Assembly: GCF_965641715.1 (NCBI RefSeq)
Contig: NZ_OZ282453.1
DNA length: 64,000 bases
Source of the DNA: Escherichia coli
GTDB taxonomy: Bacteria > Pseudomonadota > Gammaproteobacteria > Enterobacterales > Enterobacteriaceae
Direction: 5' to 3' (one strand)
A program made the position numbers and the translations under genes. The notes beneath the pieces were generated by a model. The model worked only from the letters and a program-made list of their open reading frames with translations. It was not told where the DNA came from and did no database searches. Shown piece after piece: positions 1-60,402 of the stretch (the stretch's first letter is position 1; every line of letters begins with the position of its first letter).

Positions 1-243
1 TTTTCAACATAAAGCTGGCGACACATAATGCGATGCCCACGACAGCGACGAGTTGCGTGACGGCTTGTAAAGGCCCCGCCTGGCGACGGGTCTGGCGCAG
101 ACGCAACAAAAGCAGCAACGCCATTAGCGGTAACAGCCAGTGCAGGCCGTTATGCGCTAAGCCAAACCAAATCACAAACGGCCAGGCGAGCAGCAATAAT
201 CCAGTCAGCAGCTTAATCATCGGTAGCGAGCGAATGCCCGACA
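1..243 (-). CDS. Membrane protein, C-terminally truncated by window edge (ATG at 243..241, reads MSGIRSLPMIKLLTGLLLLAWPFVIWF...); next gene after the tandem ACPs in the same operon
   Basis: Manual translation of minus strand; hydrophobic; starts 5 bp downstream of ACP stop; not in ORF track because it has no stop inside the window. Confidence 0.4.
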
Positions 244-248
244 TCAGA

Positions 249-500
249 TCAGGCTTCTTGTAGCAGGCGTTCTACAGCCTCGACGACATCCTGGACTGTA
301 CGCACGGCTTTAAACTCTTCCGGCTTGATTTTCTTACCGGTTTTCTTTTGCAGGTGCACAATCATGTCAACGGCGTCGATGCTGTCCAGTTCCAGATCTT
401 CGTACAGGCGCGCTTCAGGTTTGATGTCCTGCGGATCGATTTCAAACAGCTTAACCAGCAGGGCTGAGACTTCCTGATAGACGGTTTGTTGTTCTGTCAT
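249..500 (-). CDS. Acyl carrier protein (83 aa)
   Basis: ORF track; ACP-like size and LDSIDAVD phosphopantetheine-attachment motif. Confidence 0.8.
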   Translation of the reverse strand: MTEQQTVYQEVSALLVKLFEIDPQDIKPEARLYEDLELDSIDAVDMIVHLQKKTGKKIKPEEFKAVRTVQDVVEAVERLLQEA

Positions 501-511
501 GATGGCTTTCC

Positions 512-769
512 TCAGGCACGTTGCGCAGCAATGAAAGAGGCCAGAGTGGCGACGGAGAAAAAGTGCTGACGCATCTCTTCGCTTTCCGCAGAGAGCACGA
601 TGCCGTACTCATTTTTTACTGCCAGTCCCAGTTCCAGGGCATCGATAGAGTCCAGCCCTAAACCGTCGCCAAACAGCGGCGCGTCGGTATCGATATCATC
701 AGGCGTCAACTCGTCCAGATTGAGGGTGCTGATGATGAGGTTTTTAATTTCCAGATAAAGCGCTTGCAT
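512..769 (-). CDS. Acyl carrier protein (85 aa), tandem with the first
   Basis: ORF track; GLDSIDALEL serine motif typical of ACPs. Confidence 0.8.
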   Translation of the reverse strand: MQALYLEIKNLIISTLNLDELTPDDIDTDAPLFGDGLGLDSIDALELGLAVKNEYGIVLSAESEEMRQHFFSVATLASFIAAQRA

Positions 770-1565
770 TATTTATTCCTGAGAGAGGTAAACAACCTTG
801 TTGTAATTGAAGCAAAAGATGCCGGTTTAACTGCCTTGCTGCCAGCGCCGGTTCTTGTGAAGTTGCATCGTAAAATTTATTGATTTCAACCCGACCATGG
901 ACTGCAACCGTAAAAAACGGCCGGTCAGGTGGAACGTCATACCATTTACTTTGTTTATCCAGCAGATGCTCGCTACAGCCGATCGTCACGATGCGTAAAT
1001 CGCTGGCACAGCGCACGGCAATATTCGCCGCCCCGCGCTGCAGCGTCATTTTTTCACCGGGCTTCGTTCGCGTGCCTTCGGGGAAAATCAGGATAGTGTC
1101 ACCCTGTGCCAGTCGCTGTTGGCAGCGGGGTAACAGGGTTTCAGCTTCGCTGTTGATTAAATAATCTGCCGCCCGCACGACGCCGCCAAGAAAAGGATTT
1201 TTTAACAGCGCGCTTTTCACCAGGCAGTCAGTTTCTGGCATGACTGACGCCAGCAGCACGTAATCGATCAGCGTGGGATGATTGGCTACGACGAGGCAAC
1301 CGCGTTCCTGACGTAAAATTTCAGCGCCATCAATACGATAATCCAGCACGCCAAGCCCTTTCGCGACAGTTAAAAACAGGCGAAAACTGGCGGCAATGCT
1401 GCGACGCGCCAAACGACGGCGGCGGGAAGTATCCCACACCAAAACTAACAATATGTTAAACCACACGACAGAAAGCAGCAGGCCGCCGAGACCAAACAGG
1501 GCAAAACATAACCCGGTCATGACCAGTCGCCAGGTCCACTCCAGACGTGACATCAGCTTACTCAT
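744..1565 (-). CDS. Lysophospholipid (PlsC-type) acyltransferase
   Basis: ORF 744..1583; N-terminal TM segments; HX4D-type motif VVANHPTLIDYVLL; alternative ATG at 1565 gives an ATGA overlap with the upstream stop. Confidence 0.75.
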   Translation of the reverse strand: MSKLMSRLEWTWRLVMTGLCFALFGLGGLLLSVVWFNILLVLVWDTSRRRRLARRSIAASFRLFLTVAKGLGVLDYRIDGAEILRQERGCLVVANHPTLIDYVLLASVMPETDCLVKSALLKNPFLGGVVRAADYLINSEAETLLPRCQQRLAQGDTILIFPEGTRTKPGEKMTLQRGAANIAVRCASDLRIVTIGCSEHLLDKQSKWYDVPPDRPFFTVAVHGRVEINKFYDATSQEPALAARQLNRHLLLQLQQGCLPLSGINNASALSGN

Positions 1566-2308
1566 CTGTGGCTCCAGCGCCATTGCACGCGCTCGCCAGG
1601 CAGTGAAAATGTGTCTACATTTTGTAAATAGTGCTGTAAAAACAACATGCTTTGCGGCAGTGTTGTTTCATTGCCCGCAATGGCTGACTGCGTTTCACAT
1701 TGCCAGTCATCGCCAGCTTCAATCACCAGCGCGACGGCGTACGGCCAGGTCGGCATTTCTGCAGGCAGTTGTGGGTGATAAAACTCGGGCAGAAAACCGT
1801 CAAAATCGACCATCAGCACGCGCTGGTATCCCGCTTGTAACAGGCTAAGCACTTCACACAAACCTTGCTGGAAAGTGTCGCGACCAGCAGAAAGCGATGA
1901 CGAAACGATCGGCTGTTTGGCCGCAATGGTCAGGTTACCCACGGAAGAGTTGTGTACTGAAAGTGCAAAGTCGGTCGGAGAAAGCGCCTGTTCGGTTGCC
2001 AGTGCATGAACAATGCGGTAATTGCGCTCCAGTTCGCCATGACGACTGGTATACAAAACGGCGTCTGGCTGATGGCGGCGTAGCATTGCCAGACCGCATT
2101 CAACAGCCAGTTTGCTGCCTGAACTGAGGCGGCGGGCGGTCATCATTGGCAGTTCACTTAATTTTGCCAACGGCGCGGCAGGGTCAATCGCCCACGGCTG
2201 GCGCGACCATGCTTGCCATTGCTGCGCTTCGCTAAGTCCAGGCGCCAGTGCCTGCCAGTCGGTAATATTTAATGTAAATTTCATCAACGCGCGCCCGCGG
2301 TAAACCAA
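1562..2308 (-). CDS. Small ketosynthase-like protein, possible chain-length-factor-type subunit (248 aa)
   Basis: ORF track; size and operon position between a methyltransferase and acyltransferase/ACPs; domain call is by recollection of aryl-polyene clusters. Confidence 0.45.
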   Translation of the reverse strand: MVYRGRALMKFTLNITDWQALAPGLSEAQQWQAWSRQPWAIDPAAPLAKLSELPMMTARRLSSGSKLAVECGLAMLRRHQPDAVLYTSRHGELERNYRIVHALATEQALSPTDFALSVHNSSVGNLTIAAKQPIVSSSLSAGRDTFQQGLCEVLSLLQAGYQRVLMVDFDGFLPEFYHPQLPAEMPTWPYAVALVIEAGDDWQCETQSAIAGNETTLPQSMLFLQHYLQNVDTFSLPGERVQWRWSHR

Positions 2309-2324
2309 AATTATTAAGTGACGA

Positions 2325-3392
2325 TTATTTCTTTTGGCATATCAAAAGTGTATGCCCAACGCCTAAATTATCGTGGCGCTCTGCTACCTGGAATCCTGCT
2401 TTATTCAGATAGTCGTAAAATTTCTCTGCACTATAGAAACGGCTGTTACCGTTTGCCATGCAGGTAAAATAAAGTGAGGACGCGTTCAGGCTAAACGATG
2501 CTGCTTCAAACCGCTGCGCATCCCAGAACAACTCCATGATGCAAACTTTTGCGCCAGGCTTCATTACGCTGGCAATTTTGCTGAGTATGCTAATTATTTG
2601 TTCGGGTGAAAAACAGTCTAAAAATTGGCTCATCCACCAGATATCAGCCTCGCCCGGTAATGGGGCATCGCTTAGCATATCCACCGCATGGAAATCTATG
2701 CGATCAGAAAAACCTGCATTCGCGATATTTTCTTTCGCTAGTACGATTTGTTGTGGCAGATCTAATAACGTCACGGCGATGTTTTCATTGTATTTGCAGC
2801 AACGCAAAGCCCACTTACCCGTATTACCGCCTACATCGTACAATGTTGTGGGGTTGTTGGCGAATACATAAGGCAGTGCGGCGTTAAATGCGCCATCTGA
2901 ATAGTAATGATCAAACGCAAACCAGCTTTCACGAGCGGCGTCTGGTAATTGCGAAAGTGCCGGATATATCGTCGACCAGTCGCCAAATACTTTTAACCCG
3001 GAAGGTTTTCCTTCATTGAGTGAATCGGCGAGGAAGAAGAGCCCCTGGTAACAGACATCCTGGGTGAAATCCATATTCACGCGAGTCATAGTGTCATGCA
3101 GGAGGTAATGACCGATTTTCGCCAGGTAATAAATTCCCTCTTTACAGGTAATAATTCGCCCGCTTAAGCCCATATCTAACAGAACGCTGGCAGCATATTC
3201 GTTGATATGGCTATGTTCGGTGATATCAGCCAGCGTTGCGCCATGTTTGCCTTGCCGATCCAGATATGAAAGTACACCCGCATTACGTAGGCAGAGTGCT
3301 GTTTGAAAAAGCATAGGGGCAAAGGCAATGCGTTGAGCTTCGGTAATCGCATCCAGTGCGCTAAGAGAATCCTGTTCGTACATGTTGGGCAC
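2325..3392 (-). CDS. Class I SAM-dependent O-methyltransferase
   Basis: ORF track; glycine-rich SAM-binding motif LYDVGGNTGKWA and acidic LLDLP motif. Confidence 0.8.
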   Translation of the reverse strand: MPNMYEQDSLSALDAITEAQRIAFAPMLFQTALCLRNAGVLSYLDRQGKHGATLADITEHSHINEYAASVLLDMGLSGRIITCKEGIYYLAKIGHYLLHDTMTRVNMDFTQDVCYQGLFFLADSLNEGKPSGLKVFGDWSTIYPALSQLPDAARESWFAFDHYYSDGAFNAALPYVFANNPTTLYDVGGNTGKWALRCCKYNENIAVTLLDLPQQIVLAKENIANAGFSDRIDFHAVDMLSDAPLPGEADIWWMSQFLDCFSPEQIISILSKIASVMKPGAKVCIMELFWDAQRFEAASFSLNASSLYFTCMANGNSRFYSAEKFYDYLNKAGFQVAERHDNLGVGHTLLICQKK

Positions 3393-3451
3393 AACCTGTT
3401 AAGAGGGAATTAAATTATTATCGGACCGCAACGGCCCGACTTTAGGAAGAA

Positions 3452-3829
3452 TTATAAATCTGCGCCCGCTGACAAATTCAGTTGAATATCTTTGTCGAGA
3501 TTGCGGACCCAGCGATTGTAGTTTTTATGAATTTGTCCGCCTGACGCTTGTAGGTTCTGGCTATTTTCATAATTGATATCGTAGCTGGATGCCGTGTAGT
3601 TAATGCGTATTTCCGCTGAATGATCGCGTGACTGTTGACGTGCTTTAATTATGCCTTGTCCGGCTTCGGACATAATCCATTTGCGTTCAACGCCAGCTTT
3701 CAGAATCGCTTTTTTCACTTGTTCCTGGGTATGACCAGCGCTGACGGTTGAGTGAACCTGATCAATTGGCGCAGTACGCGCGCAACCTGCTAAAGCACCC
3801 ACAACAGCAATAGCCGCAAACCATTTCAT
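3452..3829 (-). CDS. Predicted lipoprotein of unknown function
   Basis: ORF 3452..3841; internal start MKWFAAIAVVGALAGC gives a signal peptide with lipobox LAGC. Confidence 0.55.
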   Translation of the reverse strand: MKWFAAIAVVGALAGCARTAPIDQVHSTVSAGHTQEQVKKAILKAGVERKWIMSEAGQGIIKARQQSRDHSAEIRINYTASSYDINYENSQNLQASGGQIHKNYNRWVRNLDKDIQLNLSAGADL

Positions 3830-4159
3830 GTAATGTCTCATTAGAACCCCATTAAAGTATTGTTTTTACGAGTAAAGCAAGATTTAACTGTAATTGCTGG
3901 CATCACTATTCTTTATTTAGAGAAAAAATTACTTGTGAGATAAGTCAGTAAGTGCACATCAGAGTAAAAATCTCTGAAATGACTAAATTACTGCCAGCAG
4001 GGACCAACTATAAGTGAGTGAGAAAAATGAGGCAATAAAAATAACACAATGTTATCAGTGCATTCTTTGAGAAGGATTTAATCGCTATTCGGCGTTTATA
4101 TATATTTGACTTAAGGAATGGTTTTTTTAAATTAATTTTCTGAATAATGTTTCATCATT

Positions 4160-4202
4160 TCCTCAAATCAAATGGCCACTGTTAGATAAACGGTGGCCAT
4201 TG
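4160..4202 (-). terminator. Hairpin (GGCCAC..GTGGCC) immediately downstream of yhhT
   Basis: Inverted repeat aatggccactgttagataaacggtggccatt read directly. Confidence 0.45.
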
Positions 4203-4220
4203 CCTGCTCAGGAGGTGCTA

Positions 4221-5270
4221 TTAACCCGGTAACCGACTTTTCGGTCTGCCCGGCCCCAGTAAAATCGCCAGTTTGCTACCGCCTTTGGTGGTTTCCATCC
4301 AGATTTTACACACGCTGGTTAATGGCACCGAAAGTAGCATCCCTACCGGGCCGAGCAGCCATCCCCAAATTAACAATGAAAGAAATACCACCATGGTGGA
4401 CATCCCCAGGCGATGGCCCATCATCCGTGGTTCTAAAATATTGCCGATAACCATATGGACAACTAAAAACAATGCGCCGACCAGAATACATTCGTAAACA
4501 CCATTAAACAGCAGCACCTGAATCATTGGCGGTACGGCGGAAATTACCGCGCCGATATTGGGCACGTAGTTGAGCAAAAACGCCAGTACTGCCCACATCA
4601 GCGCAAACTGCACCCCCATCAGCTCCAGCCCCAGCCAGACGATGACACCTGCCCATAAACTGAGTAGCGTCTTCAATGCAAGATAGTGCGAAACACCTTT
4701 TAAGGCGCGGTGTAGTCCGGCGATATGAATCTGTGGATTATCCAATGCAAAACGCATTTTGTAAGGGACGTGGCGCACTTCAAACAGCATAAAAACTACG
4801 GTCATCACCAGCAAAAGCACGCTCGCCATTGCCCCGGAAAGCCCGGTCATTAGCGCTGTGGTGAAGGTAACCACTTTTTCCGAGTCCATCCGCTGCAGCA
4901 TTCGCTCCGGCGACATATGCAAATTAAGAAAAGGCAACATCTCCTGCAATTTAAAAAGTTTGCGCGTCAGCTCCTTATTAAACTTCGGCAGCATAGAGAT
5001 AAATTCGTTAAACGATGCCGCCAGTACGCCGACCAGCGCGGTTAGTGTGATCAGCATCACCACCACCACAATCGTAATGGCAACGGGGCGTTTTACTCCC
5101 CGTCGAATAAACCAGGTAACGAGCGGGTTGAGGACGATGGCAAAAAACAGCGCCAGTAACAGCTGCACAATGATATCTGCCGCTGCGTGAATGCCCGCGA
5201 GGATCACTACCAGCGAGGCCAGCTTGAGCAGAATGTGCATGCCCGTTTTATCGGGTTGAGGGGTTTCCAT
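4221..5270 (-). CDS. yhhT: AI-2E/PerM-family membrane transporter
   Basis: ORF 4221..5351; start METPQPDKTG chosen to match the 349-aa K-12 protein. Confidence 0.9.
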   Translation of the reverse strand: METPQPDKTGMHILLKLASLVVILAGIHAAADIIVQLLLALFFAIVLNPLVTWFIRRGVKRPVAITIVVVVMLITLTALVGVLAASFNEFISMLPKFNKELTRKLFKLQEMLPFLNLHMSPERMLQRMDSEKVVTFTTALMTGLSGAMASVLLLVMTVVFMLFEVRHVPYKMRFALDNPQIHIAGLHRALKGVSHYLALKTLLSLWAGVIVWLGLELMGVQFALMWAVLAFLLNYVPNIGAVISAVPPMIQVLLFNGVYECILVGALFLVVHMVIGNILEPRMMGHRLGMSTMVVFLSLLIWGWLLGPVGMLLSVPLTSVCKIWMETTKGGSKLAILLGPGRPKSRLPG

Positions 5271-7252: not shown

Positions 7253-7918
7253 TTAACTCGCCTGCAAAGCGTTGATTTCGGATTTATCTGCCAGTCTTTT
7301 CAACAGCATATTGAGTAATACGCCATACATTGGCAGGAAGAAAACGATACTGATTAACACTTTGAAACAGTAATCGACCAGCGCGATTTCCATCCAGTGT
7401 TCAGCCATAAAGGCATCCGGGCTACGCCAGAAGGCAATGAAGAAAAAGGCCAGCGTGTCGCTGACGTTACCGAACAGTGTGGACGCTGTCGGTGCCAGCC
7501 ACCAGCGGCGACTCTGACGCAGGCGGTTAAAAACGTGCACGTCGAGGATCTGTCCCAGCGCGTAGGCCATGAAACTGGCGGTGGCGATACGGGCGACAAA
7601 CAGGTTGAAGTGAGCGAGTGCGCCGAATCCCTGCCAGGAGCCCATATAGAACAGCGACGAGATGACGTAGGAGATCAGCAACGCCGGGATCATCACCGCA
7701 AAGATGATACGACGGGCCAGCGGTGCGCCAAAAATACGCACGGTCAGGTCAGTAGCAAGGAAAATAAACGGAAAGCTAAACGCGCCCCAGGTGGTATGGA
7801 AACCAAAAATGGAGACGGGAAGCTGAACCAGATAGTTACTGGAGGTGATCACCAGAAGATGAAATAACGATAACCAGAACAACGCCTTATAGCGTTGCGT
7901 TTGCGAGAAAACGTTCAT
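7253..7918 (-). CDS. yhhQ: Queuosine-precursor transporter
   Basis: 221-aa membrane ORF, same length as K-12 YhhQ. Confidence 0.9.
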   Translation of the reverse strand: MNVFSQTQRYKALFWLSLFHLLVITSSNYLVQLPVSIFGFHTTWGAFSFPFIFLATDLTVRIFGAPLARRIIFAVMIPALLISYVISSLFYMGSWQGFGALAHFNLFVARIATASFMAYALGQILDVHVFNRLRQSRRWWLAPTASTLFGNVSDTLAFFFIAFWRSPDAFMAEHWMEIALVDYCFKVLISIVFFLPMYGVLLNMLLKRLADKSEINALQAS

Positions 7919-8138
7919 ATTGTACCTTTTTGATTAACCATTGGGGTGAGGGAACCCAATACGTACGACACGTCTGTTACCTTAACATAATAACGTGCTT
8001 ACCCTTTTTTCGAGCCGCCGCATGATACTGCTTTACGTTGACAATGCAATGGTTAATTTTCACGCAATCGTTAACCTGGTTTGCTTACGGACTCACAGGG
8101 CGTAAACTAGCGCCGTTTTTTTATGTGATGAGAAGAAA

Positions 8139-8394: not shown

Positions 8395-8525
8395 GGACTG
8401 TTACCCTAACCCTCTCCCCAGAGGGGCGAGTGGACCGATCGCACTCAATGTTGCTGCTTGAAACCGGTACGTAGGACGGATAAGGCGTTCACGCCGCATC
8501 CGGCAAGCAAGTGTAATGGAATACA
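8395..8525. repeat. REP-type intergenic palindromic repeats
   Basis: gtaggacggataaggcgttcacgccgcatccggcaagc and ccctctccccagaggggcgag palindromes. Confidence 0.55.
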
Positions 8526-8528
8526 CAA

Positions 8529-8837
8529 ATGGATTATTTAATTCCTGTTTGCCTGGGATTGCTGGGATTGTTCGCGATGTTCGCCCCCAATTGGCTGATG
8601 CCTGTTTTAATCGCCGTGGGGGGATGGCTGGTGGTACTTGCCTGTGGTTGGCTCTGGCTAATGATTTTTTTACCTTTACTTAACGGCGTCGGGCTTGCTT
8701 ATGCCCTGTGGTTGATGTTCAAAAGGCCATCATTCACGTCCCGCCTGGTTGCTACATGTTGTGTTATCTCCGTCATTCTGATGTTAGCGCTATATTACAC
8801 TTTCCTGACCATGCCACCGTTCCCGGCCCAGCACTAA
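8529..8837 (+). CDS. Hypothetical small membrane protein (102 aa); may be non-coding
   Basis: ORF track only; very hydrophobic; sits between convergent tusA and zntA. Confidence 0.2.
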   Translation: MDYLIPVCLGLLGLFAMFAPNWLMPVLIAVGGWLVVLACGWLWLMIFLPLLNGVGLAYALWLMFKRPSFTSRLVATCCVISVILMLALYYTFLTMPPFPAQH

Positions 8838-8869
8838 CCCTGATAGCCAGAGGCTATCAGGCAACACCT

Positions 8870-17863: not shown

Positions 17864-18967
17864 ATGAACATAAAGGGTAAAGCGTTACTGGCAGGATGTA
17901 TCGCGCTGGCATTCAGCAATATGGCTCTGGCAGAAGATATTAAAGTCGCGGTCGTGGGCGCAATGTCCGGTCCGGTTGCGCAGTACGGTGACCAGGAGTT
18001 TACCGGCGCAGAGCAGGCGGTTGCGGATATCAACGCTAAAGGCGGCATTAAAGGCAACAAACTGCAAATCGTAAAATATGACGATGCCTGTGACCCGAAA
18101 CAGGCGGTTGCGGTGGCGAACAAAGTCGTTAACGACGGCATTAAATATGTGATTGGTCACCTCTGTTCTTCATCAACGCAGCCTGCGTCTGACATCTACG
18201 AAGACGAAGGCATTTTAATGATCACCCCAGCGGCAACCGCGCCGGAGCTGACCGCCCGTGGCTATCAGCTGATCCTGCGCACCACCGGCCTGGACTCCGA
18301 CCAGGGGCCGACGGCGGCGAAATATATTCTTGAGAAAGTGAAACCGCAGCGTATTGCTATCGTTCACGACAAACAGCAATACGGCGAAGGTCTGGCGCGA
18401 GCGGTGCAGGACGGCCTGAAGAAAGGCAATGCTAACGTGGTGTTCTTTGATGGTATCACCGCCGGGGAAAAAGATTTCTCAACGCTGGTGGCGCGTCTGA
18501 AAAAAGAGAATATCGACTTCGTTTACTACGGCGGTTATCACCCGGAAATGGGGCAAATCCTGCGTCAGGCACGCGCGGCAGGGCTGAAAACTCAGTTTAT
18601 GGGGCCGGAAGGTGTGGCTAACGTTTCGCTGTCTAACATTGCGGGCGAATCAGCGGAAGGGCTGCTGGTGACCAAGCCGAAGAACTACGATCAGGTTCCG
18701 GCGAACAAACCCATTGTTGACGCGATCAAAGCGAAAAAACAGGACCCAAGTGGCGCGTTCGTCTGGACCACCTACGCCGCGCTGCAATCTTTGCAGGCGG
18801 GCCTGAATCAGTCTGACGATCCGGCTGAGATCGCCAAATACCTGAAAGCGAACTCGGTTGATACCGTGATGGGTTCGCTGACGTGGGATGAGAAAGGTGA
18901 TCTGAAAGGCTTTGAGTTCGGTGTGTTTGACTGGCACGCCAACGGCACGGCGACCGATGCGAAGTAA
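17864..18967 (+). CDS. livJ: Leu/Ile/Val periplasmic binding protein
   Basis: ORF 17807..18967; start [23 protein letters not shown] (signal peptide). Confidence 0.95.
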
Positions 18968-18985
18968 CGGATAGATAAATGAAAA

Positions 18986-19019
18986 TGCCCGATGCGCTTA
19001 ACGTCCATCGGGTTTTTTT
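18986..19019 (+). terminator. Rho-independent terminator of livJ
   Basis: Hairpin gcccgatgcgcttaacgtccatcgggt plus T-run. Confidence 0.7.
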
Positions 19020-19116
19020 ATGTTTGTCGAAATGGTTGTAGAAAGATTAAACAATCCAGGATATGCTTATTGTACGGTGATGTGCCGTACATATTATACG
19101 GAGCAGGAGAGTTCAC

Positions 19117-19383
19117 ATGTCTGCTGTTAAAAAGCAGCGTATCGATCTGCGTTTAACTGACGATGACAAAAGTATGATTGAGGAAGCGGCAGCGATATCT
19201 AATCAGTCCGTCAGCCAATTTATGTTGAACAGCGCTTCGCAGCGGGCTGCGGAAGTGATTGAACAGCATCGGCGGGTGATCCTCAATGAGGAATCCTGGA
19301 CGCGGGTGATGGATGCGCTGAGTAATCCACCGTCACCAGGTGAAAAGCTAAAACGTGCGGTAAAACGTCTTCAGGGAATGTAA
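19117..19383 (+). CDS. ataR: DUF1778-type antitoxin of a GNAT toxin-antitoxin pair (88 aa)
   Basis: Small protein immediately upstream (6-bp gap) of a GNAT gene; symbol assigned from memory of the O157:H7 AtaR-AtaT locus. Confidence 0.7.
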   Translation: MSAVKKQRIDLRLTDDDKSMIEEAAAISNQSVSQFMLNSASQRAAEVIEQHRRVILNEESWTRVMDALSNPPSPGEKLKRAVKRLQGM

Positions 19384-19389
19384 TAATTT

Positions 19390-19917
19390 ATGGATGATCT
19401 GACGATAGAGATTCTGACCGATGATGCAGATTATGATCTACAGCGATTCGACTGCGGCGAGGAAGCGTTAAATCTCTTTCTGACGACACATCTCGTTCGT
19501 CAACATCGCAACAAAATTCTGCGAGCGTATATCCTTTGTCGCAACACTCCAGAACGTCAGGTGCTGGGATATTACACATTATCCGGCAGTTGTTTTGAAC
19601 GAGCCGCATTGCCCTCGAAATCGAAACAGAAAAAAATTCCCTACAAAAATATTCCCAGCGTCACTCTTGGGCGTCTGGCAATTGATCGTTCATTACAGGG
19701 GCAGGGATGGGGAGCAACACTGGTTGCTCATGCCATGAAAGTCGTCTGGTCAGCCTCTTTAGCGGTAGGTATTCACGGTCTTTTTGTCGAGGCGCTGAAT
19801 GAAAAAGCCCATACGTTTTATAAATCGCTGGGCTTTATCCCTTTAGTCGGGGAAAACGAAAATGCGTTATTTTTCCCAACCAAATCCATTGAACTGCTTT
19901 TTACACAGAGCGATTAA
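19390..19917 (+). CDS. ataT: GNAT-family tRNA-acetylating toxin (175 aa)
   Basis: GNAT acetyl-CoA motif region (QGQGWGATLV); paired with upstream antitoxin-like gene. Confidence 0.7.
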   Translation: MDDLTIEILTDDADYDLQRFDCGEEALNLFLTTHLVRQHRNKILRAYILCRNTPERQVLGYYTLSGSCFERAALPSKSKQKKIPYKNIPSVTLGRLAIDRSLQGQGWGATLVAHAMKVVWSASLAVGIHGLFVEALNEKAHTFYKSLGFIPLVGENENALFFPTKSIELLFTQSD

Positions 19918-32283: not shown

Positions 32284-34029
32284 ATGATAAAACCGACGTT
32301 TTTACGCCGGGTGGCCATTGCTGCTCTGTTCACAGGAAGTTGTTTTAGTACGGTAGCCGCGCCACCTGCGCCGTCTCCTGTTTCTTACGGCGTGGAGGAA
32401 GATGTCTTTCATCCGGTACGCGCGAAACAGGGGATGGTGGCATCTGTAGATGCTACTGCCACTCAGGTGGGGGTGGATATCCTCAAGGAGGGCGGGAATG
32501 CCGTTGATGCCGCCGTGGCTGTGGGCTACGCGCTGGCGGTAACGCATCCGCAGGCAGGGAATCTGGGCGGTGGTGGTTTTATGCTGATCCGCTCGAAAAA
32601 TGGCAATACCACCGCTATCGATTTCCGCGAAATGGCACCCGCCAAAGCGACCCGCGATATGTTCCTTGATGACCAGGGCAACCCGGACAGCAAAAAATCA
32701 CTCACTTCGCATCTGGCTTCCGGCACGCCCGGTACGGTCGCTGGTTTCTCGCTGGCGTTGGATAAATACGGCACAATGCCGTTGAACAAAGTGGTGCAGC
32801 CAGCGTTTAAACTGGCACGCGATGGTTTTATCGTTAACGACGCGCTGGCTGACGATCTCAAAACCTACGGGAGCGAAGTGCTGCCGAATCACGAAAACAG
32901 CAAGGCTATCTTCTGGAAAGAGGGCGAGCCGCTGAAAAAGGGCGACAAGCTGGTGCAGGCGAACCTGGCAAAGAGCCTGGAGATGATTGCCGAAAACGGC
33001 CCGGACGAATTCTACAAAGGCACGATAGCGGAACAGATTGCCCAGGAGATGCAGAAAAACGGTGGCCTGATCACTAAAGAAGATTTAGCGGCGTATAAAG
33101 CGGTCGAACGCACACCGATAAGCGGCGATTATCGCGGGTATCAGGTTTACTCTATGCCACCGCCATCTTCCGGTGGGATTCATATCGTGCAGATCCTCAA
33201 TATTCTGGAAAACTTCGATATGAAGAAATACGGCTTTGGCAGTGCCGATGCGATGCAAATCATGGCAGAGGCTGAGAAATACGCCTACGCCGACCGCTCG
33301 GAATATCTTGGCGACCCGGATTTTGTCAAAGTCCCGTGGCAGGCGCTGACCAATAAAGCCTATGCCAAATCTATTGCCGAGCAAATCGATATCAATAAAG
33401 CGAAACCGTCCAGCGAGATTCGCCCTGGCAAGCTTGCGCCTTATGAGAGTAATCAAACTACCCATTACTCAGTGGTGGATAAAGACGGTAACGCCGTGGC
33501 GGTGACCTATACGCTGAACACCACCTTCGGTACGGGTATTGTCGCGGGCGAGAGCGGTATTCTGCTTAATAACCAGATGGATGATTTCTCCGCCAAACCG
33601 GGCGTACCGAACGTTTACGGGCTGGTAGGCGGTGATGCCAACGCGGTCGGGCCGAATAAACGCCCGCTGTCGTCGATGTCACCAACCATTGTGGTGAAAG
33701 ACGGTAAAACCTGGCTGGTTACCGGTAGCCCTGGCGGGAGCCGGATTATTACCACCGTGCTGCAAATGGTGGTGAATAGCATCGATTATGGCATGAACGT
33801 CGCCGAAGCGACCAATGCGCCGCGTTTCCACCATCAGTGGTTGCCGGACGAGCTGCGTGTCGAAAAAGGGTTTAGCCCGGATACGCTCAAACTGCTGGAA
33901 GCAAAAGGTCAGAAAGTGGCGCTGAAAGAGGCGATGGGCAGTACACAAAGCATTATGGTTGGGCCGGACGGTGAGTTGTACGGCGCATCCGACCCGCGCT
34001 CGGTGGATGATTTAACGGCGGGGTACTAA
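32284..34029 (+). CDS. ggt: Gamma-glutamyltranspeptidase
   Basis: ORF 32257..34029; start MIKPTFLRR; 580 aa. Confidence 0.95.
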   Translation: MIKPTFLRRVAIAALFTGSCFSTVAAPPAPSPVSYGVEEDVFHPVRAKQGMVASVDATATQVGVDILKEGGNAVDAAVAVGYALAVTHPQAGNLGGGGFMLIRSKNGNTTAIDFREMAPAKATRDMFLDDQGNPDSKKSLTSHLASGTPGTVAGFSLALDKYGTMPLNKVVQPAFKLARDGFIVNDALADDLKTYGSEVLPNHENSKAIFWKEGEPLKKGDKLVQANLAKSLEMIAENGPDEFYKGTIAEQIAQEMQKNGGLITKEDLAAYKAVERTPISGDYRGYQVYSMPPPSSGGIHIVQILNILENFDMKKYGFGSADAMQIMAEAEKYAYADRSEYLGDPDFVKVPWQALTNKAYAKSIAEQIDINKAKPSSEIRPGKLAPYESNQTTHYSVVDKDGNAVAVTYTLNTTFGTGIVAGESGILLNNQMDDFSAKPGVPNVYGLVGGDANAVGPNKRPLSSMSPTIVVKDGKTWLVTGSPGGSRIITTVLQMVVNSIDYGMNVAEATNAPRFHHQWLPDELRVEKGFSPDTLKLLEAKGQKVALKEAMGSTQSIMVGPDGELYGASDPRSVDDLTAGY

Positions 34030-34066
34030 GGTTAGCGGCCCTCTTCGTGGGAAGAGGGCTATTTTG

Positions 34067-34351
34067 TCAGGGCAAGCCGAAGGTAGCCTTTTTTATTTCG
34101 TAATCCTGTAGATATTCTTCCAGCGGCTTTGCCGTTCCCAGAGAATGAATTTCACCACTGTCTTTATCAATAATAAAAGGTGCGTTACCAGCTAAGCGCG
34201 CGGCCTCATCTCCAGTTTCGAGAAATTCTCGTGCTTCGAAACAGAAATACCAGCCCTGGCTAAAGCGTCCATGTAGAGTAATGACGACCGGGAGATCTGC
34301 ATCATCAAGGTAATGGTTCGCTTTCGCGAATGCGTCGTGATAAGTAATCAT
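34067..34351 (-). CDS. yrhB: YrhB-family small protein (immunity-like)
   Basis: 94 aa; matches recalled K-12 YrhB. Confidence 0.8.
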   Translation of the reverse strand: MITYHDAFAKANHYLDDADLPVVITLHGRFSQGWYFCFEAREFLETGDEAARLAGNAPFIIDKDSGEIHSLGTAKPLEEYLQDYEIKKATFGLP

Positions 34352-34800
34352 AATTATAATAAATATTATTGTTGAATGTTATATTATTATTCCTGTGTGA
34401 TACATTGAGCAAAGGTGCATTCATCTTCGTCAAAGATATTATTAAATGCTGGTTTTGAAAAAAGTTCATCGGATAAGATATAGTCACGAAATAAGTATCT
34501 GCTAATATTTTGTGATTTCTTTTTCAGAACGTCGAACGGGATTTTCTTATTTAAGATATCAGAATCTTATGATTTGGGTAAAATTCTAAATAAATCAACA
34601 TGTCACTAAAATCATCATAGCCATTAGCTATTTCGGCTAAAATAGAGACTACATGTCTTCGGTCCATCTCACTTAAGGAGTGTAGTTCCGTTGTAAGTTT
34701 TTCCATAGCTTGCATTGCTAAATTTCGAACAAGGAATTTTCTGGTGGTAATCTCTAAAAAGATGGCATGGTTTACAATGATTTTTGTTTCCTTTTGATTA

Positions 34801-35295
34801 TTATGAACAACTATCCATGATTTCGTTTAAGAATGAAGAGAAATCACTAAACGAACTGAATATATTTTCTGTGCCAATATTATCTCTAATTTCAAAAAAG
34901 TTACTTTTAATGTCATAAGTAAATATTGAAATGCTATCATCCCCGATCACTAACCGTTCTTGTAGATCAGGGTTTATGAAATCATCATTATTTCTATAAA
35001 ATTCATTTACGGCAAAAAGGTTTTTAACTGAAGGTTCTGGAATCGAGAGGCTAAATAATCGCAATCCATTAACTTCGAATCCATCCATTGCTCTTAAAAA
35101 AGTAAGATAATCAGGTTGATTCTTAAAAAGAATACTAACTTCATTACATAACTTCTCCAGGCAATTAGTTGAATTAGAATTAAATTCTATTTGGATTATA
35201 CTTTCAATAAATGATTCCTTGAGCGGTGCTTCAAATGGATAGTCTAAATCATTCATCATTTTTATTAATTTGTTTATTTGGGTTTTAGTCATCAT
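34801..35295 (-). CDS. yrhA: Putative immunity protein for the upstream HNH toxin domain (YrhA-like), intact here
   Basis: 164 aa; start overlaps the toxin ORF stop by 4 bp; low-GC gene. Confidence 0.6.
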   Translation of the reverse strand: MMTKTQINKLIKMMNDLDYPFEAPLKESFIESIIQIEFNSNSTNCLEKLCNEVSILFKNQPDYLTFLRAMDGFEVNGLRLFSLSIPEPSVKNLFAVNEFYRNNDDFINPDLQERLVIGDDSISIFTYDIKSNFFEIRDNIGTENIFSSFSDFSSFLNEIMDSCS

Positions 35296-36470
35296 TTTGT
35301 GGGTTCCATAATATTTTTCATGGGAGGATAAATTGAGCCAGATGGAATGGCCCAGGGAGTGATTTTGCTTTCACCTACTAATATTCCCTTAGCTATTCGT
35401 GATTGCATGTTAGTAAAAACTTTATGATATGGTTCGTTTTCGATTAATACTAAATTTTCGAAATCATTAGTACCACCATCATCTAGAGATAGTTTATGGT
35501 GAACATTATAATTTAGAGGAACATAGCCCTTTCTCATTCTTAAAAGGTCTTCGGTGTTGAATCTTCCAGATGCTTCGGAGGTTTTTGCAAGTTTGATAAG
35601 AAAATTTTTTCTTACAGTTTTGTTAAACTCCTTTCGTAAGTTAGCTAAGTCTTTTGAAGGTCTCTTAATGTATATTATTTATATTATGTCTATGCCATCA
35701 AGAAGTTTTTGTTGATCTCTAAGTTTGCCTAAGTAACTATTTATTTCTGTATATGTATCAACTTTAGAACGCTTTGTTAAAAGAATAGATGCTGTTGCTA
35801 TCGCTATGCCCGCTGTTTTTTCATTTAGTATTTGATCATAGCCTTTGATTGCATCTCCACCCAGTTTTTCCGCAGTATCTCTGAATCCTTCAATGTTCCC
35901 ATTGTATACGCCACCAGCAGCAAGTAGCCTGCCAACAGCTTTGCTGTTTAACGTTTTGAAACGATTATTTGTTTGGTTTTTTGAATTTGGTAAAAACAAA
36001 CGGTTATAATTTTCAGGGAGTGCCAAATAGCTGAACTCGGTATTTGCGATAAGATGTTGACAGAGGATAAATTCATAACTAACAGTTATTGTTTCTGTAT
36101 CCAGTTGATTTTGAATGATCTGATGATGAATAGCCGATAAAAAAGCGCCTCTTAGTTGTGTATAATAATACTTTTCCCATCTACCAAATCTATTGATTCT
36201 ATAAAAGTCAAATTTCATAAATAATTGCTCATTATTGTTAATGGAATTAATAAGTAATGGAGTGCTTTTATCAATTAATTTACAAAATGTCATAGCCTGT
36301 AACTGTGAACCAAGCCCCGTATTAGTAATTCTATTTTCGAGTGAGAATGTAAATATTTCATTCTCATGCCCGCTCTGCCAGCGATTACCTATAGATTCAG
36401 TAGTCCCACAACCTGCGGAGATGCTTCCTTGTTGTTCTCCCGTTACTGTCAGATAAACAATATTACTCAT
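35292..36470 (-). pseudogene. yhhZ: Hcp-domain protein fused to a C-terminal HNH nuclease toxin (yhhZ-like), interrupted by one in-frame TAA at 35679..35681
   Basis: 263-aa ORF with Hcp-like N-terminus; same frame continues after the single stop through 47 codons into the 81-aa HNH ORF (NVHHKLSLDDGGTNDFENLVLIENEPYH); 392 codons in total. Confidence 0.65.
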
Positions 36471-36706
36471 CCCTGAAAAGTCCTTTTATGGCATGCTATT
36501 TTATCAATGGCACTATTATGCTTGTTAATTGTTATTTATTTACTCCAGGAAATTGTAGGCGTATATATTAAAAAATAAAATATTACACTTTAGGAAGTAA
36601 TTATGAGGTAAGTCTCAATATATTTATTGGGAAAATAAATACATTAAAGGAAGGTATGCCGATTTTGAATGACACCCTTTTTCCATCTCAGAAAAAGGGC
36701 ACTATT

Positions 36707-37195
36707 TTACTTCACCCGCGCCATAAAATACGCATCAACATATTCACCATTACGTAATGCGTACTTCTTGCCAGTCCCTTCAATCTCAAAGCCGAATTTT
36801 TTATAGACCTTAATTGCTGGCGCGTTATCGACAAACACCGTTAGCTCAATACGATCTACCCGCAACCAGTTGTCGCACATTTCAATCATCTCTCGCATCA
36901 GGGCGCTGGCGACGCCGCGATTCTTCCAGCGGGCGTCGACACAGATACCAAAATCGGCAACATGACTGCGGCGTGGGCGCTGTTGCACGTCAATGGTGAG
37001 ATGGCCCACGACGTCTCCATCAATACAGGCGACGAGTTGCTTGATGCCGGGACGATTGGCGAGTCGCTCCTGCCACATATAATCGGAAGGATGAGGCACT
37101 TGTAGCGTGTTGTAATACACCTCCGGCTGGGCGTGAATCTGCCTGATGGCCTCGTAATCGCGCGTTTCAGCATGGCGTATCACTATCTCACTCAT
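36707..37195 (-). CDS. yhhY: GNAT-family N-acetyltransferase
   Basis: ORF 36707..37273; start MSEIVIRHAE gives 162 aa. Confidence 0.85.
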   Translation of the reverse strand: MSEIVIRHAETRDYEAIRQIHAQPEVYYNTLQVPHPSDYMWQERLANRPGIKQLVACIDGDVVGHLTIDVQQRPRRSHVADFGICVDARWKNRGVASALMREMIEMCDNWLRVDRIELTVFVDNAPAIKVYKKFGFEIEGTGKKYALRNGEYVDAYFMARVK

Positions 37196-37316: not shown

Positions 37317-37409
37317 GCGATCAGGAAGACCCTCGCGGAGAACCTGAAAGCACGACATTGCTCACATTGCTTCCAGTATTACTTAGCCAGCCGGGTGCTG
37401 GCTTTTTTT
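37317..37409 (+). ncRNA. ryhB: RyhB small RNA (Fur-repressed iron-sparing sRNA) with intrinsic terminator
   Basis: Matches recalled RyhB sequence GCGATCAGGAAGACCCTCGCGGAGAACCTGAAAGCACGACATTGCTCACATTGCTTCCAGTATTACTTAGCCAGCCGGGTGCTGGCTTTTTTTTT. Confidence 0.92.
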
Positions 37410-37528
37410 TTGATCTTTCGTTCTCAATTTATCCTCGGGAAGTGCTTGTGTTCGTTATGCGCACTCCAGTAGGAACCACGTCCGCTTTGCGCTAAGGTGT
37501 AAATAACCACCTTAAAAAGGACGAAATC

Positions 37529-42752: not shown

Positions 42753-44849
42753 ATGGAAAAGCACGCAGCTGAATTGCTTTTACAGCGGATGTTAGGAAAT
42801 ACCACCGCTACTTTCAGGGAAGGGCAATGGGAAGCCATAGACGCGGTGGTGAACCAACGGCGAAAACTGCTGGTTGTCCAACGCACTGGCTGGGGGAAAA
42901 GTGCTGTGTACTTCATCGCCAGTAAAATCTTCCGCGATCGCGGCGCTGGCCCGACAATTATCATCTCTCCTTTGCTTGCCCTGATGCGTAACCAGGTTGC
43001 CGCCGCTGAACGGTTAGGTATTACGGCTGAAACGTTGAATTCTACAAACAGAGAAGAATGGCAGCGCATTAGCGATAAGTTGCTGCAAGGTGAGGTCGAT
43101 TGCTTGCTGGTTTCCCCGGAACGTTTGGCAAACCAGGACTTTATCGAAACGGTTTTATATCCTATAGCCGATCGTATTGGCTTGCTTGTGGTCGACGAGG
43201 CGCACTGCATCTCTGATTGGGGCCACGATTTTCGCCCGGATTACCGACGTATATTAGATATTTTGCGCCAACTACCTGCGAATACCCCTGTTCTGGGTAC
43301 AACCGCGACAGCGAATAACCGTGTCGTTGAGGATATCCGTCAGCAATTGGGTGACATTGTGATTCAGCGTGGAACGCTGGCTCGCGAAAGTTTGGCGCTT
43401 GATGCCTTAGTCTTAGGTGAACAGTCATCCCGTCTGGCATGGTTAGCAACGGTTATCCCTCAGTTTTCCAAATCGGGAATTGTTTATACCCTGACTACTC
43501 GCGATGCCGAACTTGTCGCCGAGTGGTTAAGGAAAAATGGTATCAGTGCATTTGCTTACTACAGCGGCGTGACTTGCGAAGGCGCGGAAGATTCTAATAC
43601 TGCCAGGGAATATCTGGAGCAGGCGTTGCTGGCAAATAAAATTAAAGTGCTGGTTGCGACAACGGCGCTGGGAATGGGCTTTGACAAACCGGATTTGGGG
43701 TTTGTTATTCATTACCAGATGCCAGGTTCGATAGTTGGTTACTACCAACAGGTGGGGCGTGCCGGTCGCGGTATCGATTCTGCTGTTGGCATACTGCTTT
43801 GCGGCAGTGAAGACCGTGCTATTCATAAATTCTTCCGTGAAAGCGCCTTTCCTGCGGAGGCGCAAATTCATGAAATACTCAACGTACTTAGCGTGAATGA
43901 CGGTCTTACCTTACGAGGCATTGAACAACGGACGAATCTCCGTTATGGGCAAATAGAAAAAGCACTGAAATTATTGGTAGCTGAAAATCCATCGCCTGTG
44001 GTGTATACCGAGAAATTATGGCGCAGAACAATTGTCAGTTTTTCTCCTGACCATGAACGAATTAACCATTTGATGAATCAGAGAAAAAGTGAGCTGGCAG
44101 ACGTTGAAAGCTATATCACGACCAAGGAGTGCAAAATGCAATTTCTGCGCCGCGCACTCGATGAGCCAGGTGCCGAACATTGTGGTAAATGTAGCAGTTG
44201 TCTTCAGCATCCGTTGTTGTCGCCCGACATTGATAGCGGCTTACTCCATGCGGCAAACTTATTTATTAAACACGCTGACCTGCCATTAAATCTCAATAAA
44301 CAGGTGGCAGCTGGGGCTTTTACGCAATACGGATTTAAAGGGAACTTGCCTGCGAGTTTACAAGGATCTACGGGGCGAATCCTTTCTCGTTGGGGAGATT
44401 CCGGGTGGGGAAAGCAGGTAGCACAGGAGAAAAAAACGGGGCGATTCAGTGATGAACTGGTGGAGGCATGTGCGGAAATGGTTCGCCAACGCTGGAATCC
44501 GCATCCTGAACCAACCTGGGTATGCTGCGTTCCTTCATTAAAGCACCTCGACCTGGTTCCTGATTTTGCCCGGCGACTGGCGGCGAAACTTGGCTTACCT
44601 TTTATTGATGCCATTGAAAAAGTCGTGGACAATCCACCGCAGAAAATGCAGCAAAACCGTTTCCACCAGTGTCAAAATCTCGACGGGGCGTTTGTGATTA
44701 CCCCTCCTTTGATGCCTGGTCCGGCGTTGCTGGTTGACGATATCGTGGATTCTGCATGGACGCTGACAGTTCTGACAGCACTGTTACGCCAGGCAGGTTG
44801 CCCGACGGTTTATCCTCTTGCCCTTGCTTCTACCTCGGTAAAAAATTGA
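42753..44849 (+). CDS. RecQ-family helicase fused to C-terminal phosphoribosyltransferase-like domain (698 aa); candidate toxin/effector
   Basis: RecQ motifs GWGKS, VVDEAHCISDWGHDFRPDY, GTTATA, QQVGRAGRG; C-terminal PRTase-type motif LLVDDIVDSAWTLT. Confidence 0.8.
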   Translation: MEKHAAELLLQRMLGNTTATFREGQWEAIDAVVNQRRKLLVVQRTGWGKSAVYFIASKIFRDRGAGPTIIISPLLALMRNQVAAAERLGITAETLNSTNREEWQRISDKLLQGEVDCLLVSPERLANQDFIETVLYPIADRIGLLVVDEAHCISDWGHDFRPDYRRILDILRQLPANTPVLGTTATANNRVVEDIRQQLGDIVIQRGTLARESLALDALVLGEQSSRLAWLATVIPQFSKSGIVYTLTTRDAELVAEWLRKNGISAFAYYSGVTCEGAEDSNTAREYLEQALLANKIKVLVATTALGMGFDKPDLGFVIHYQMPGSIVGYYQQVGRAGRGIDSAVGILLCGSEDRAIHKFFRESAFPAEAQIHEILNVLSVNDGLTLRGIEQRTNLRYGQIEKALKLLVAENPSPVVYTEKLWRRTIVSFSPDHERINHLMNQRKSELADVESYITTKECKMQFLRRALDEPGAEHCGKCSSCLQHPLLSPDIDSGLLHAANLFIKHADLPLNLNKQVAAGAFTQYGFKGNLPASLQGSTGRILSRWGDSGWGKQVAQEKKTGRFSDELVEACAEMVRQRWNPHPEPTWVCCVPSLKHLDLVPDFARRLAAKLGLPFIDAIEKVVDNPPQKMQQNRFHQCQNLDGAFVITPPLMPGPALLVDDIVDSAWTLTVLTALLRQAGCPTVYPLALASTSVKN

Positions 44850-59260: not shown

Positions 59261-59285
59261 CGCTCGAGAGAAAGGAATCAGCGAG

Positions 59286-60278: not shown

Positions 60279-60402
60279 TGATGAATATAATCAGACTTTA
60301 TATTTATCCGTTATTTCTCGGCTTTGTTATTGTGCCGTTGTTGGTGTGGCCGATGGTGGTTGCGCTGGCTGCTTGTATTATCGTTGACAAAGTGCACTTT
60401 GT

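Follow-up and report, generated by a model that had tools for sequence, protein, structure and literature searches.

Genes between yhhT and the left edge of the window

What lies at the left end of the window, the whole 64,000-nucleotide stretch of Escherichia coli DNA analyzed here? With start codons taken from RefSeq for TUM13936, a genome that is 99.9% identical, the features, in the direction of transcription, are:

5270-4221, minus strand: yhhT, AI-2E family transporter (NCBIfam NF008930, 2.1e-113), annotated in TUM13936, O157:H7 and K-12
3830-4220, minus strand: AT-rich spacer of 391 nt from the yhhT stop to the apeA start, GC 37-42%
3829-3452, minus strand: apeA, the gene that opens the cluster; lipoprotein ORF, 125 aa, with a signal peptide and the lipobox LAGC
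3383-2325, minus strand: apeB, ORF for a SAM-dependent methyltransferase, 352 aa, class I, O-methyltransferase-type fold
2284-1562, minus strand: apeC, ORF for a half-size ketosynthase-like chain-length factor, 240 aa, the partner of ApeO
1565-744, minus strand: apeD, ORF for a PlsC/LPLAT-family acyltransferase, 273 aa, with HX4D as HPTLID, and FPEGTR
769-512, minus strand: apeE, acyl carrier protein ORF, 85 aa, Ser in GLDSID
500-249, minus strand: apeF, acyl carrier protein ORF, 83 aa, Ser in ELDSID
244-1, minus strand, running off the left edge: apeG, 5′ part (81 of 193 codons within the window), COG4648-family membrane protein

The first-pass annotation had proposed this minus-strand series from a lipoprotein to a membrane protein; the ORFs are real and their order is as it gave. 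Its tightly overlapping starts and stops are found at apeC/apeD (4 nt) and apeD/apeE (26 nt) but not elsewhere, where gaps separate the genes: 68 nt for apeA-apeB, 40 nt for apeB-apeC, 11 nt for apeE-apeF and 4 nt for apeF-apeG. It had also spoken of the edge of a cluster; a cluster is indeed present, but its edge is not ambiguous, as the window carries the 5′ start of the operon. yhhT, a conserved chromosomal flank, lies directly upstream on the same strand.

The ape promoter presumably lies within the spacer, which is common to yhhT-linked copies of the cluster. One site resembling -35/-10 elements is found there (4035-4007); consensus scans of positions 1-4300 for promoters and terminators yield about as many hits as shuffled sequences do, so that no ape promoter is assignable. 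Directly after yhhT, a hairpin at 4201-4171 (-21.9 kcal/mol, z=-2.5) is a possible yhhT terminator; its loop exceeds the range of the terminator scanner and its U-tract is weak.

Where is the rest of the cluster? In TUM13936, the closest complete genome, the 11 remaining genes continue leftward and encode an adenylating enzyme, dehydratases, a glycosyltransferase, a thioesterase, a LolA/MMPL/DUF3261 export set, two ketosynthases and a ketoreductase. The genes beyond this window (apeH, apeO, apeR, apeQ, apeI, apeP, apeK, apeJ and apeL/M/N) are intact both there and in O157:H7; biosynthetic and export genes had been expected on this side, and the near-identical genomes bear this out with two ketosynthases, two dehydratases, a ketoreductase and the MMPL/LolA set. 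In TUM13936 and O157:H7, acpT starts 1 nt past the apeR stop; it lies at the far end of the cluster, ~11.2 kb (11.19 kb) to the left of window position 1 instead of just beyond the window, where it had first been placed.

Could the seven visible genes be a remnant of a cluster that is truncated, disrupted or permanently silent in this genome? Of a cluster of about 15 kb, the window shows only 3.8 kb and ends within apeG, and the consensus scans reveal no convincing promoter; silence in laboratory culture is known for some ape clusters (bioRxiv 10.1101/2020.12.19.423268). Among 5426 complete E. coli genomes surveyed, 823 carry the first 4.2 kb of the cluster region and 821 the remaining 11.2 kb; two of the 823 miss at least 80% of the remainder. 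Yet a remnant is very improbable: none of the six complete ORFs is disrupted, their proteins are identical to those of TUM13936, in which the cluster is complete, and both parts of the cluster are present in 821 of the 823 genomes. The partial apeG translation (window 244-2) likewise agrees at every residue with the N-terminal part of the TUM13936 COG4648 protein, which is 193 aa long.

The encoded proteins

ApeA, annotated as “lipoprotein” (WP_001301470.1) by RefSeq in the 99.9%-identical genome, belongs to no family in Pfam or NCBIfam and is only 65% identical to ApeA of the Nissle/CFT073 type. Deletion of apeA in CFT073 leaves the pigment but abolishes formation of the mature APE lipid (PMC8253772). 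Judged by its profile score, ApeB is a close relative of the FlxJ-family methyltransferases of flexirubin clusters and not an equivalog, because its match to NCBIfam NF053543 (3.1e-142, 473.7 bits) falls under the curated cut-off of 560; it also matches PDB 3DP7 (5.6e-105) and shares 332 of 352 residues with Nissle ApeB. Methylation of the aryl head group is reportedly a ring C-methylation, a view ascribed to Cimermancic in 2014. In Xenorhabdus doucetiae, an apeB deletion yields desmethyl APE lipids (bioRxiv 10.1101/2020.12.19.423268).

ApeD matches NCBIfam TIGR00530 (AGP_acyltrn, 3.3e-15) and is identical to Nissle ApeD at 266 of 273 positions. Both tandem carrier proteins contain, in their translations, the DSID motif with the serine for phosphopantetheine attachment, and both score over the cut-off of an NCBIfam model: ApeE that of NF006617 (4.1e-26) and ApeF that of NF003757 (2.7e-43). 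In the PDB, ApeE matches 9LS6_A (1.6e-25), which is 86 aa long and carries the deposition name “Acyl carrier protein,” and ApeF matches 9L1V_A (5.7e-19). ApeG has no match in Pfam or NCBIfam.

The first-pass annotation described a 248-aa ketosynthase-like protein and suggested an HMM search for such similarity: the ketosynthase likeness is borne out by Pfam PF13723 (Ketoacyl-synt_2, 1.4e-66) and by crystallized X. doucetiae ApeC (PDB 6QSP_B, E=2.7e-92 across residues 1-238), but the length is 240 aa, the longer form having arisen because an upstream TTG was taken as the start. The 239-aa X. doucetiae ApeC aligns from residue 1 of the 240-aa form. A. baumannii ApeC (7F28_A) is a more distant match (1.5e-14); NCBIfam holds no model for ApeC, which RefSeq names “beta-ketoacyl synthase chain length factor.” Both 6QSP and 7F28 are ApeO-ApeC complexes, KS-CLF heterodimers with a half-size CLF (PMC8358021); ApeC has 240 aa, against 389 aa for ApeO. 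In contrast, canonical aromatic type II PKSs use a full-length KS-CLF, and ApeC is half the normal size of a CLF.

How does ApeC relate to the active site of its partner? BLASTP finds no significant alignment between ApeC and the ketosynthase ApeO. Using a thin profile, hhalign places ApeC 140-164 on ApeO 161-185 with a probability of only 0.3%; extrapolated from this alignment, Arg135 of ApeC, and no Cys, would face Cys156 of ApeO, and there is no Cys in ApeC 130-140. An Asn opposite the catalytic Cys of ApeO, suggested by one weak BLASTP HSP, was rejected: hhalign contradicts it, and neither alignment is strong enough to be trusted.

An aryl-polyene cluster and its predicted product

Positions 1-3829 are very probably the promoter-proximal quarter of an 18-gene, ~15-kb E. 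coli aryl-polyene operon that lies between yhhT and acpT, a locus originally described in O157:H7. The gene identities, their order, orthology and locus, as well as their distribution in the population, are direct observations. The order had been recognized in the first pass as that of aryl-polyene clusters, and it equals apeA-G of both E. coli CFT073 and X. doucetiae; the cluster identity is settled by sequence-level matches to characterized orthologs. The analysis thus supports the initial interpretation: this is the already known E. coli aryl-polyene cluster at its known yhhT-acpT site, a textbook-level accessory locus that leaves current understanding unchanged.

Few biosynthetic gene cluster families of Gram-negative bacteria are as widespread as the aryl-polyene clusters, and published work ties the E. 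coli cluster to protection from oxidative stress and to biofilm formation. The APE_Ec cluster of CFT073 and Nissle 1917 (apeA-R, c1204-c1186) matches the yhhT-linked cluster gene for gene: all 18 are shared, with order and orientation conserved. Nucleotide identity to the CFT073/Nissle-type cluster is about 92.5% over window 1-3577, and ApeB-F are 94-97% identical; in the Nissle-type copy, homology ends at window 3577 and the sequence upstream is unrelated. The CFT073/Nissle copy resides in a region resembling a pathogenicity island; its neighbors are pseudogenes, IS elements and a hemagglutinin locus, and acpT does not adjoin it. It is the CFT073 cluster that has been dissected genetically: deletions abolish the APE pigment (PMC8253772, with a gene table for c1186-c1204).

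The O157:H7 yhhT-acpT island is closer still: as had been surmised from the position next to yhhT, the O157:H7 genome has the same genes at the same site, 98.7% identical over 4220 bp. The 54 nucleotide differences are unevenly spread, with 37 in window 1801-2400 (the 5′ half of apeC and the apeB-apeC spacer), and ApeC carries 11 amino-acid changes. We take this island to be O-island 138 and its ACPs to be Z4853/Z4854. The two carrier proteins of the window had been equated with the O157:H7 ACPs reported as AcpT substrates, and ApeE (85/85 identical) and ApeF (82/83) indeed match the proteins of an O157:H7 strain; PMC8253772, citing De Lay and Cronan, 2006, refers to the ACPs of O157:H7 EDL933 as AcpT substrates in vitro. 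No published demonstration of pigment was found for the yhhT-linked variant; what has been characterized in E. coli is the CFT073 copy, which is island-borne and 92.5% identical.

The X. doucetiae ape cluster shares the ApeA-R nomenclature and order, and its ApeC aligns end to end with that of the window. Although it belongs to a different genus, this system offers in vitro reconstitution, the ApeO:ApeC structure and an APE-lipid structure; chain length and anchor were determined there, not in E. coli, for which the anchor lipid is still unproven (PMC8253772). Farther away, flexirubin and xanthomonadin clusters and aromatic type II PKSs share an aryl starter, dissociated KS/KR/DH enzymes with ACPs, and a head-group methyltransferase related to ApeB (FlxJ family).

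What would the operon make? We infer the product, its expression and every enzymatic step in the source strain by orthology with the CFT073 and X. doucetiae systems; the roles of ApeB, D, E, F and G follow X. doucetiae (PMC8253772; bioRxiv 10.1101/2020.12.19.423268), the latter source also describing the APE-lipid structure and the role of ApeJ. AcpT would turn apo-ApeE and apo-ApeF into holo-proteins, and ApeH would load 4-hydroxybenzoate onto ApeE. Chain synthesis would be started by ApeR and extended with malonyl units by the ketosynthase ApeO paired with the half-size, presumably non-catalytic ApeC, while ApeQ (a reductase) and ApeI/ApeP (dehydratases) would turn the chain into a conjugated polyene, the aryl head group of which ApeB is expected to methylate. 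A second, conjugated fatty acyl chain has been proposed to form on ApeF; the PlsC-type ApeD would transfer this ApeF-borne chain to lysophosphatidylglycerol, and ApeJ may attach the sugar and the APE chromophore. Export to the outer membrane would then fall to ApeG, ApeL, ApeM, ApeN and possibly the lipoprotein ApeA; once there, the pigment lipid is predicted to protect against oxidative stress and promote biofilms.

Might this be fatty acid synthesis instead? Before 2014, the O157:H7 island was interpreted as a secondary fatty-acid-synthase-like system, which would make an unusual membrane lipid and not an aryl-polyene pigment. ACPs, a PlsC acyltransferase and the KS/KR/DH genes of neighbor genomes are all FAS-like, and the X. 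doucetiae product does contain the conjugated fatty acyl chain for which ApeF is the proposed site of assembly and ApeD the proposed transferase (bioRxiv 10.1101/2020.12.19.423268); however, ApeC is the specific APE chain-length factor, the cluster also encodes ApeH, which activates the aryl acid, and a methyltransferase for the head group, and both the near-identity of ApeB-F to a CFT073-type cluster of the same gene order and the loss of pigment upon deletions within that cluster (PMC8253772) make this reading extremely improbable.

For the aryl-polyene operon itself, there is a small chance that the yhhT-linked cluster is regulated differently from the CFT073 copy, or builds or localizes a somewhat different aryl-polyene lipid, because acpT abuts apeR, ApeA has diverged and the upstream region is unrelated.

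Distribution among E. coli and the K-12 scar

What re-examination of the locus contributes is a population picture. Across the 5426 genomes, the cluster occupies the yhhT-acpT site in about 570, a second, island-borne copy is present in about 255, and the other 4856 carry the K-12-type scar, one shared deletion scar in which 18-19 nt from the end of apeR survive. The block had been said to be absent from K-12, and so it is: only 54 bp separate yhhT from acpT there, the last 18-19 nt of apeR are retained, and homology to the window resumes at position 4225. Horizontal acquisition was considered on compositional grounds and rejected, since coding GC (44-56%) is not clearly deviant for E. coli and K-12 keeps the apeR remnant; for the same two reasons, the sequences favor loss in K-12-like lineages over a recent gain here.

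Gene content of the left end of the window

Minus-strand ORFs follow one another without interruption here (six-frame ORF list) and form the start of an aryl-polyene (APE) cluster; start codons are as annotated by RefSeq in a 99.9%-identical genome:

5270-4221, minus: yhhT, directly upstream of apeA on the same strand; then yhhS and dcrB
3829-3452, minus: apeA, lipoprotein, 125 aa, lipobox LAGC
3383-2325, minus: apeB, methyltransferase, 352 aa
2284-1562, minus: apeC, ketosynthase-like, 240 aa
1565-744, minus: apeD, acyltransferase, 273 aa, motifs HPTLID and FPEGTR
769-512, minus: apeE, acyl carrier protein (ACP), 85 aa, GLDSID
500-249, minus: apeF, ACP, 83 aa, ELDSID
244 to the left edge, minus: apeG, membrane protein, 81 codons visible

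The APE locus is not new and has been thoroughly characterised, and the first-pass annotation, made from the sequence alone, described and interpreted it correctly, barring the acpT position, the ApeC length, the gene overlap and the “O-” label. Its “tightly overlapping” genes are so only in part: apeC/apeD overlap by 4 nt and apeD/apeE by 26 nt, but the other four junctions are gaps (apeA-apeB, 68 nt; apeB-apeC, 40 nt; apeE-apeF, 11 nt; apeF-apeG, 4 nt).

The small protein suspected of being ketosynthase-like is indeed so: along its whole length, ApeC matches PDB 6QSP chain B (E=2.7e-92), and it also matches 7F28_A (E=1.5e-14) and PF13723 (Ketoacyl-synt_2; 1.4e-66). Both structures are ApeO-ApeC ketosynthase/chain-length-factor heterodimers, from X. 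doucetiae and A. baumannii (PMC8358021); APE chain-length factors are described as about half the ketosynthase length (PMC8358021), like ApeC (240 aa vs 389 aa for ApeO). The 248 aa originally given to ApeC counts from an upstream TTG; the 239-aa Xenorhabdus ApeC aligns from residue 1 of the 240-aa form. ApeE and ApeF both score above curated NCBIfam cut-offs for ACP families, and their best PDB matches (9LS6_A and 9L1V_A, respectively) are deposited as acyl carrier proteins. ApeD matches the 1-acylglycerol-3-phosphate acyltransferase domain (3.3e-15). ApeB, a close relative of the flexirubin FlxJ methyltransferase, scores 473.7 bits against that model, under its cut-off of 560; its relatives of known structure are enzymes with a class I O-MT fold (e.g., PDB 3DP7, 5.6e-105), and its “O-” label is among the details needing correction. 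ApeA and ApeG match no Pfam or NCBIfam family.

Does the yhhT-apeA spacer (3830-4220; 391 nt, AT-rich, GC 37-42%) carry regulatory signals? A stable hairpin 3' of the yhhT stop (4201-4171; -21.9 kcal/mol, z=-2.5) may be the yhhT terminator. The spacer contains one -35/-10-like site (4035-4007); in a consensus scan, shuffled sequence yields at least as many promoter-like sites, and thus an ape promoter cannot be assigned.

The complete cluster and its two E. coli versions

Among 5426 complete E. coli genomes, megablast finds window 1-4220 in 824, chromosomal in every case, with the best match in strain TUM13936 (99.9% identity). There, the remainder of apeG is followed leftward, on the same strand, by 11 more genes:

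apeH, left of apeG: AMP-binding
apeI: FabZ-like dehydratase
apeJ: GT2
apeK: thioesterase
apeL: LolA-like
apeM: MMPL
apeN: DUF3261
apeO: KS
apeP: hotdog dehydratase
apeQ: FabG2
apeR: KS

Past apeR come acpT and nikABCDER. The arrangement in O157:H7 is identical (98.7% identity), and the expected leftward continuation with ketosynthase, dehydratase, reductase and export genes is thus present in both strains. Counted from the start codon of apeA to the stop codon of apeR, the cluster spans ~15.0 kb and 18 genes, the first 3.8 kb within the window. The apeR stop codon and the acpT start are 1 nt apart; acpT, thought to lie just beyond the window, sits 11.19 kb left of position 1. At ≥80% coverage, the remaining 11.2 kb is found in 821 genomes and the window part in 823; therefore, the two parts almost never occur apart.

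The matches fall into two versions. Approximately 569 genomes align at ≥95% identity across the full query, yhhT-side spacer included; ~255 align at ~92.5% identity, ending at window 3577, within apeA. The latter group carries the island-borne Nissle 1917/CFT073-type copy, which has the same 18 genes but is surrounded by pseudogenes, IS elements and a hemagglutinin locus, without an adjoining acpT. Its ApeB-F are 94-97% identical to those in the window, whereas ApeA is only 65% identical; the yhhT-linked variant is set apart by the abutting acpT, the diverged ApeA and a different upstream region.

Across 4220 bp, this sequence and O157:H7 differ at 54 nucleotides, 37 of which crowd into window 1801-2400 (the apeC 5' half and the apeB-apeC spacer). 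ApeC has 11 amino-acid changes, its neighbours 0-2; a small recombination event probably accounts for the patch.

The proposed pathway rests on orthology to CFT073 and X. doucetiae work (PMC8253772; PMC8358021; bioRxiv 10.1101/2020.12.19.423268). AcpT would activate ApeE and ApeF; ApeH would load 4-hydroxybenzoate onto ACP without a CoA intermediate; ApeR would initiate the chain and ApeO-ApeC extend it with malonyl units, with reduction and dehydration by ApeQ and ApeI/ApeP yielding the polyene. ApeB would methylate the head group; an apeB deletion mutant makes desmethyl products (bioRxiv 10.1101/2020.12.19.423268). A proposed role of ApeF is to hold a second conjugated fatty acyl chain during its synthesis, with ApeD then passing it to a lysophosphatidylglycerol; ApeJ would join GalNAc and the APE chromophore. 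Transport of the lipid to the outer membrane would fall to ApeG/L/M/N, perhaps with ApeA. In CFT073, deleting apeF or apeD leaves part of the pigmentation, and an apeA deletion mutant keeps pigment but lacks the mature lipid (PMC8253772). APE reportedly protects from oxidative stress and contributes to biofilm formation (PMC8253772); chronic oxidative stress induces the cluster, according to a 2026 preprint.

The yhhT-acpT junction in K-12

K-12 was said to lack this block, and in MG1655 just 54 bp (L003, the K-12 sequence, 7916-7969) separate yhhT from acpT. Directly 5' of its acpT start, K-12 has 18-19 nt (ATTAAACGTTGGCCCTGA) that are identical to the apeR 3' end of cluster-bearing strains (in TUM13936, L001 8813-8830). 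Because this retained stretch matches the apeR tail, and the same C-terminal peptide, IKRWP, also ends the island-borne Nissle apeR, sequence comparison identifies the junction as a deletion scar of the ape cluster, which fits the title of the 2006 De Lay & Cronan paper (cited in PMC8253772). At ≥80% coverage, 4856/5426 genomes have the scar sequence; the 570 without it agree with the number of yhhT-linked clusters. The apeR-tail remnant is a deletion scar that K-12 shares with these genomes.

Other features of the window

Several further loci vary among strains or encode recognizable modules:

8455-8869, between tusA and zntA: 416-bp segment absent from K-12, O157:H7 and TUM13936, complete in 317/5426 genomes; REP-like element plus the next ORF
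8529-8837, plus: predicted membrane ORF, 102 aa, no family match
18967-19911, livJ-panM interval: ~940 bp absent from TUM13936, collinear with O157:H7, where it is annotated as an ataR/ataT toxin-antitoxin module
34029-36708, minus: variable island flanked by ggt and yhhY, with the next four ORFs
36470-35679, minus: Hcp/TssD-like protein, 263 aa
35537-35292, minus: 81 aa
35295-34801, minus: YrhA-family protein, 164 aa
34351-34067, minus: 94 aa
42753-44849, plus: RecQ-family helicase, 698 aa (PADLOC PsyrT model, 1066 bits)
44756-46051, plus: DprA-like protein, 431 aa (PADLOC PsyrA model, 671 bits)
57743-60380, between glgP and glpD: a 505-aa and a 351-aa PstS-family ORF that overlap; just downstream, near 60380, ~520 bp of TUM13936 is missing
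37346-37410, plus: RyhB small RNA (Rfam RF00057, 83.1 bits)

The ggt-yhhY island resembles an orphan Hcp-toxin/immunity module of yhhZ-yrhA type; its Hcp part is an ORF distinct from the 81-aa one downstream of it. The RecQ/DprA-like pair (42753-46051) lies between gntU and yhgN, a position that is presumably empty in K-12; its model matches point to a PsyrTA toxin-antitoxin/anti-phage pair. RyhB is the sole Rfam match at the gathering threshold within the 64 kb.
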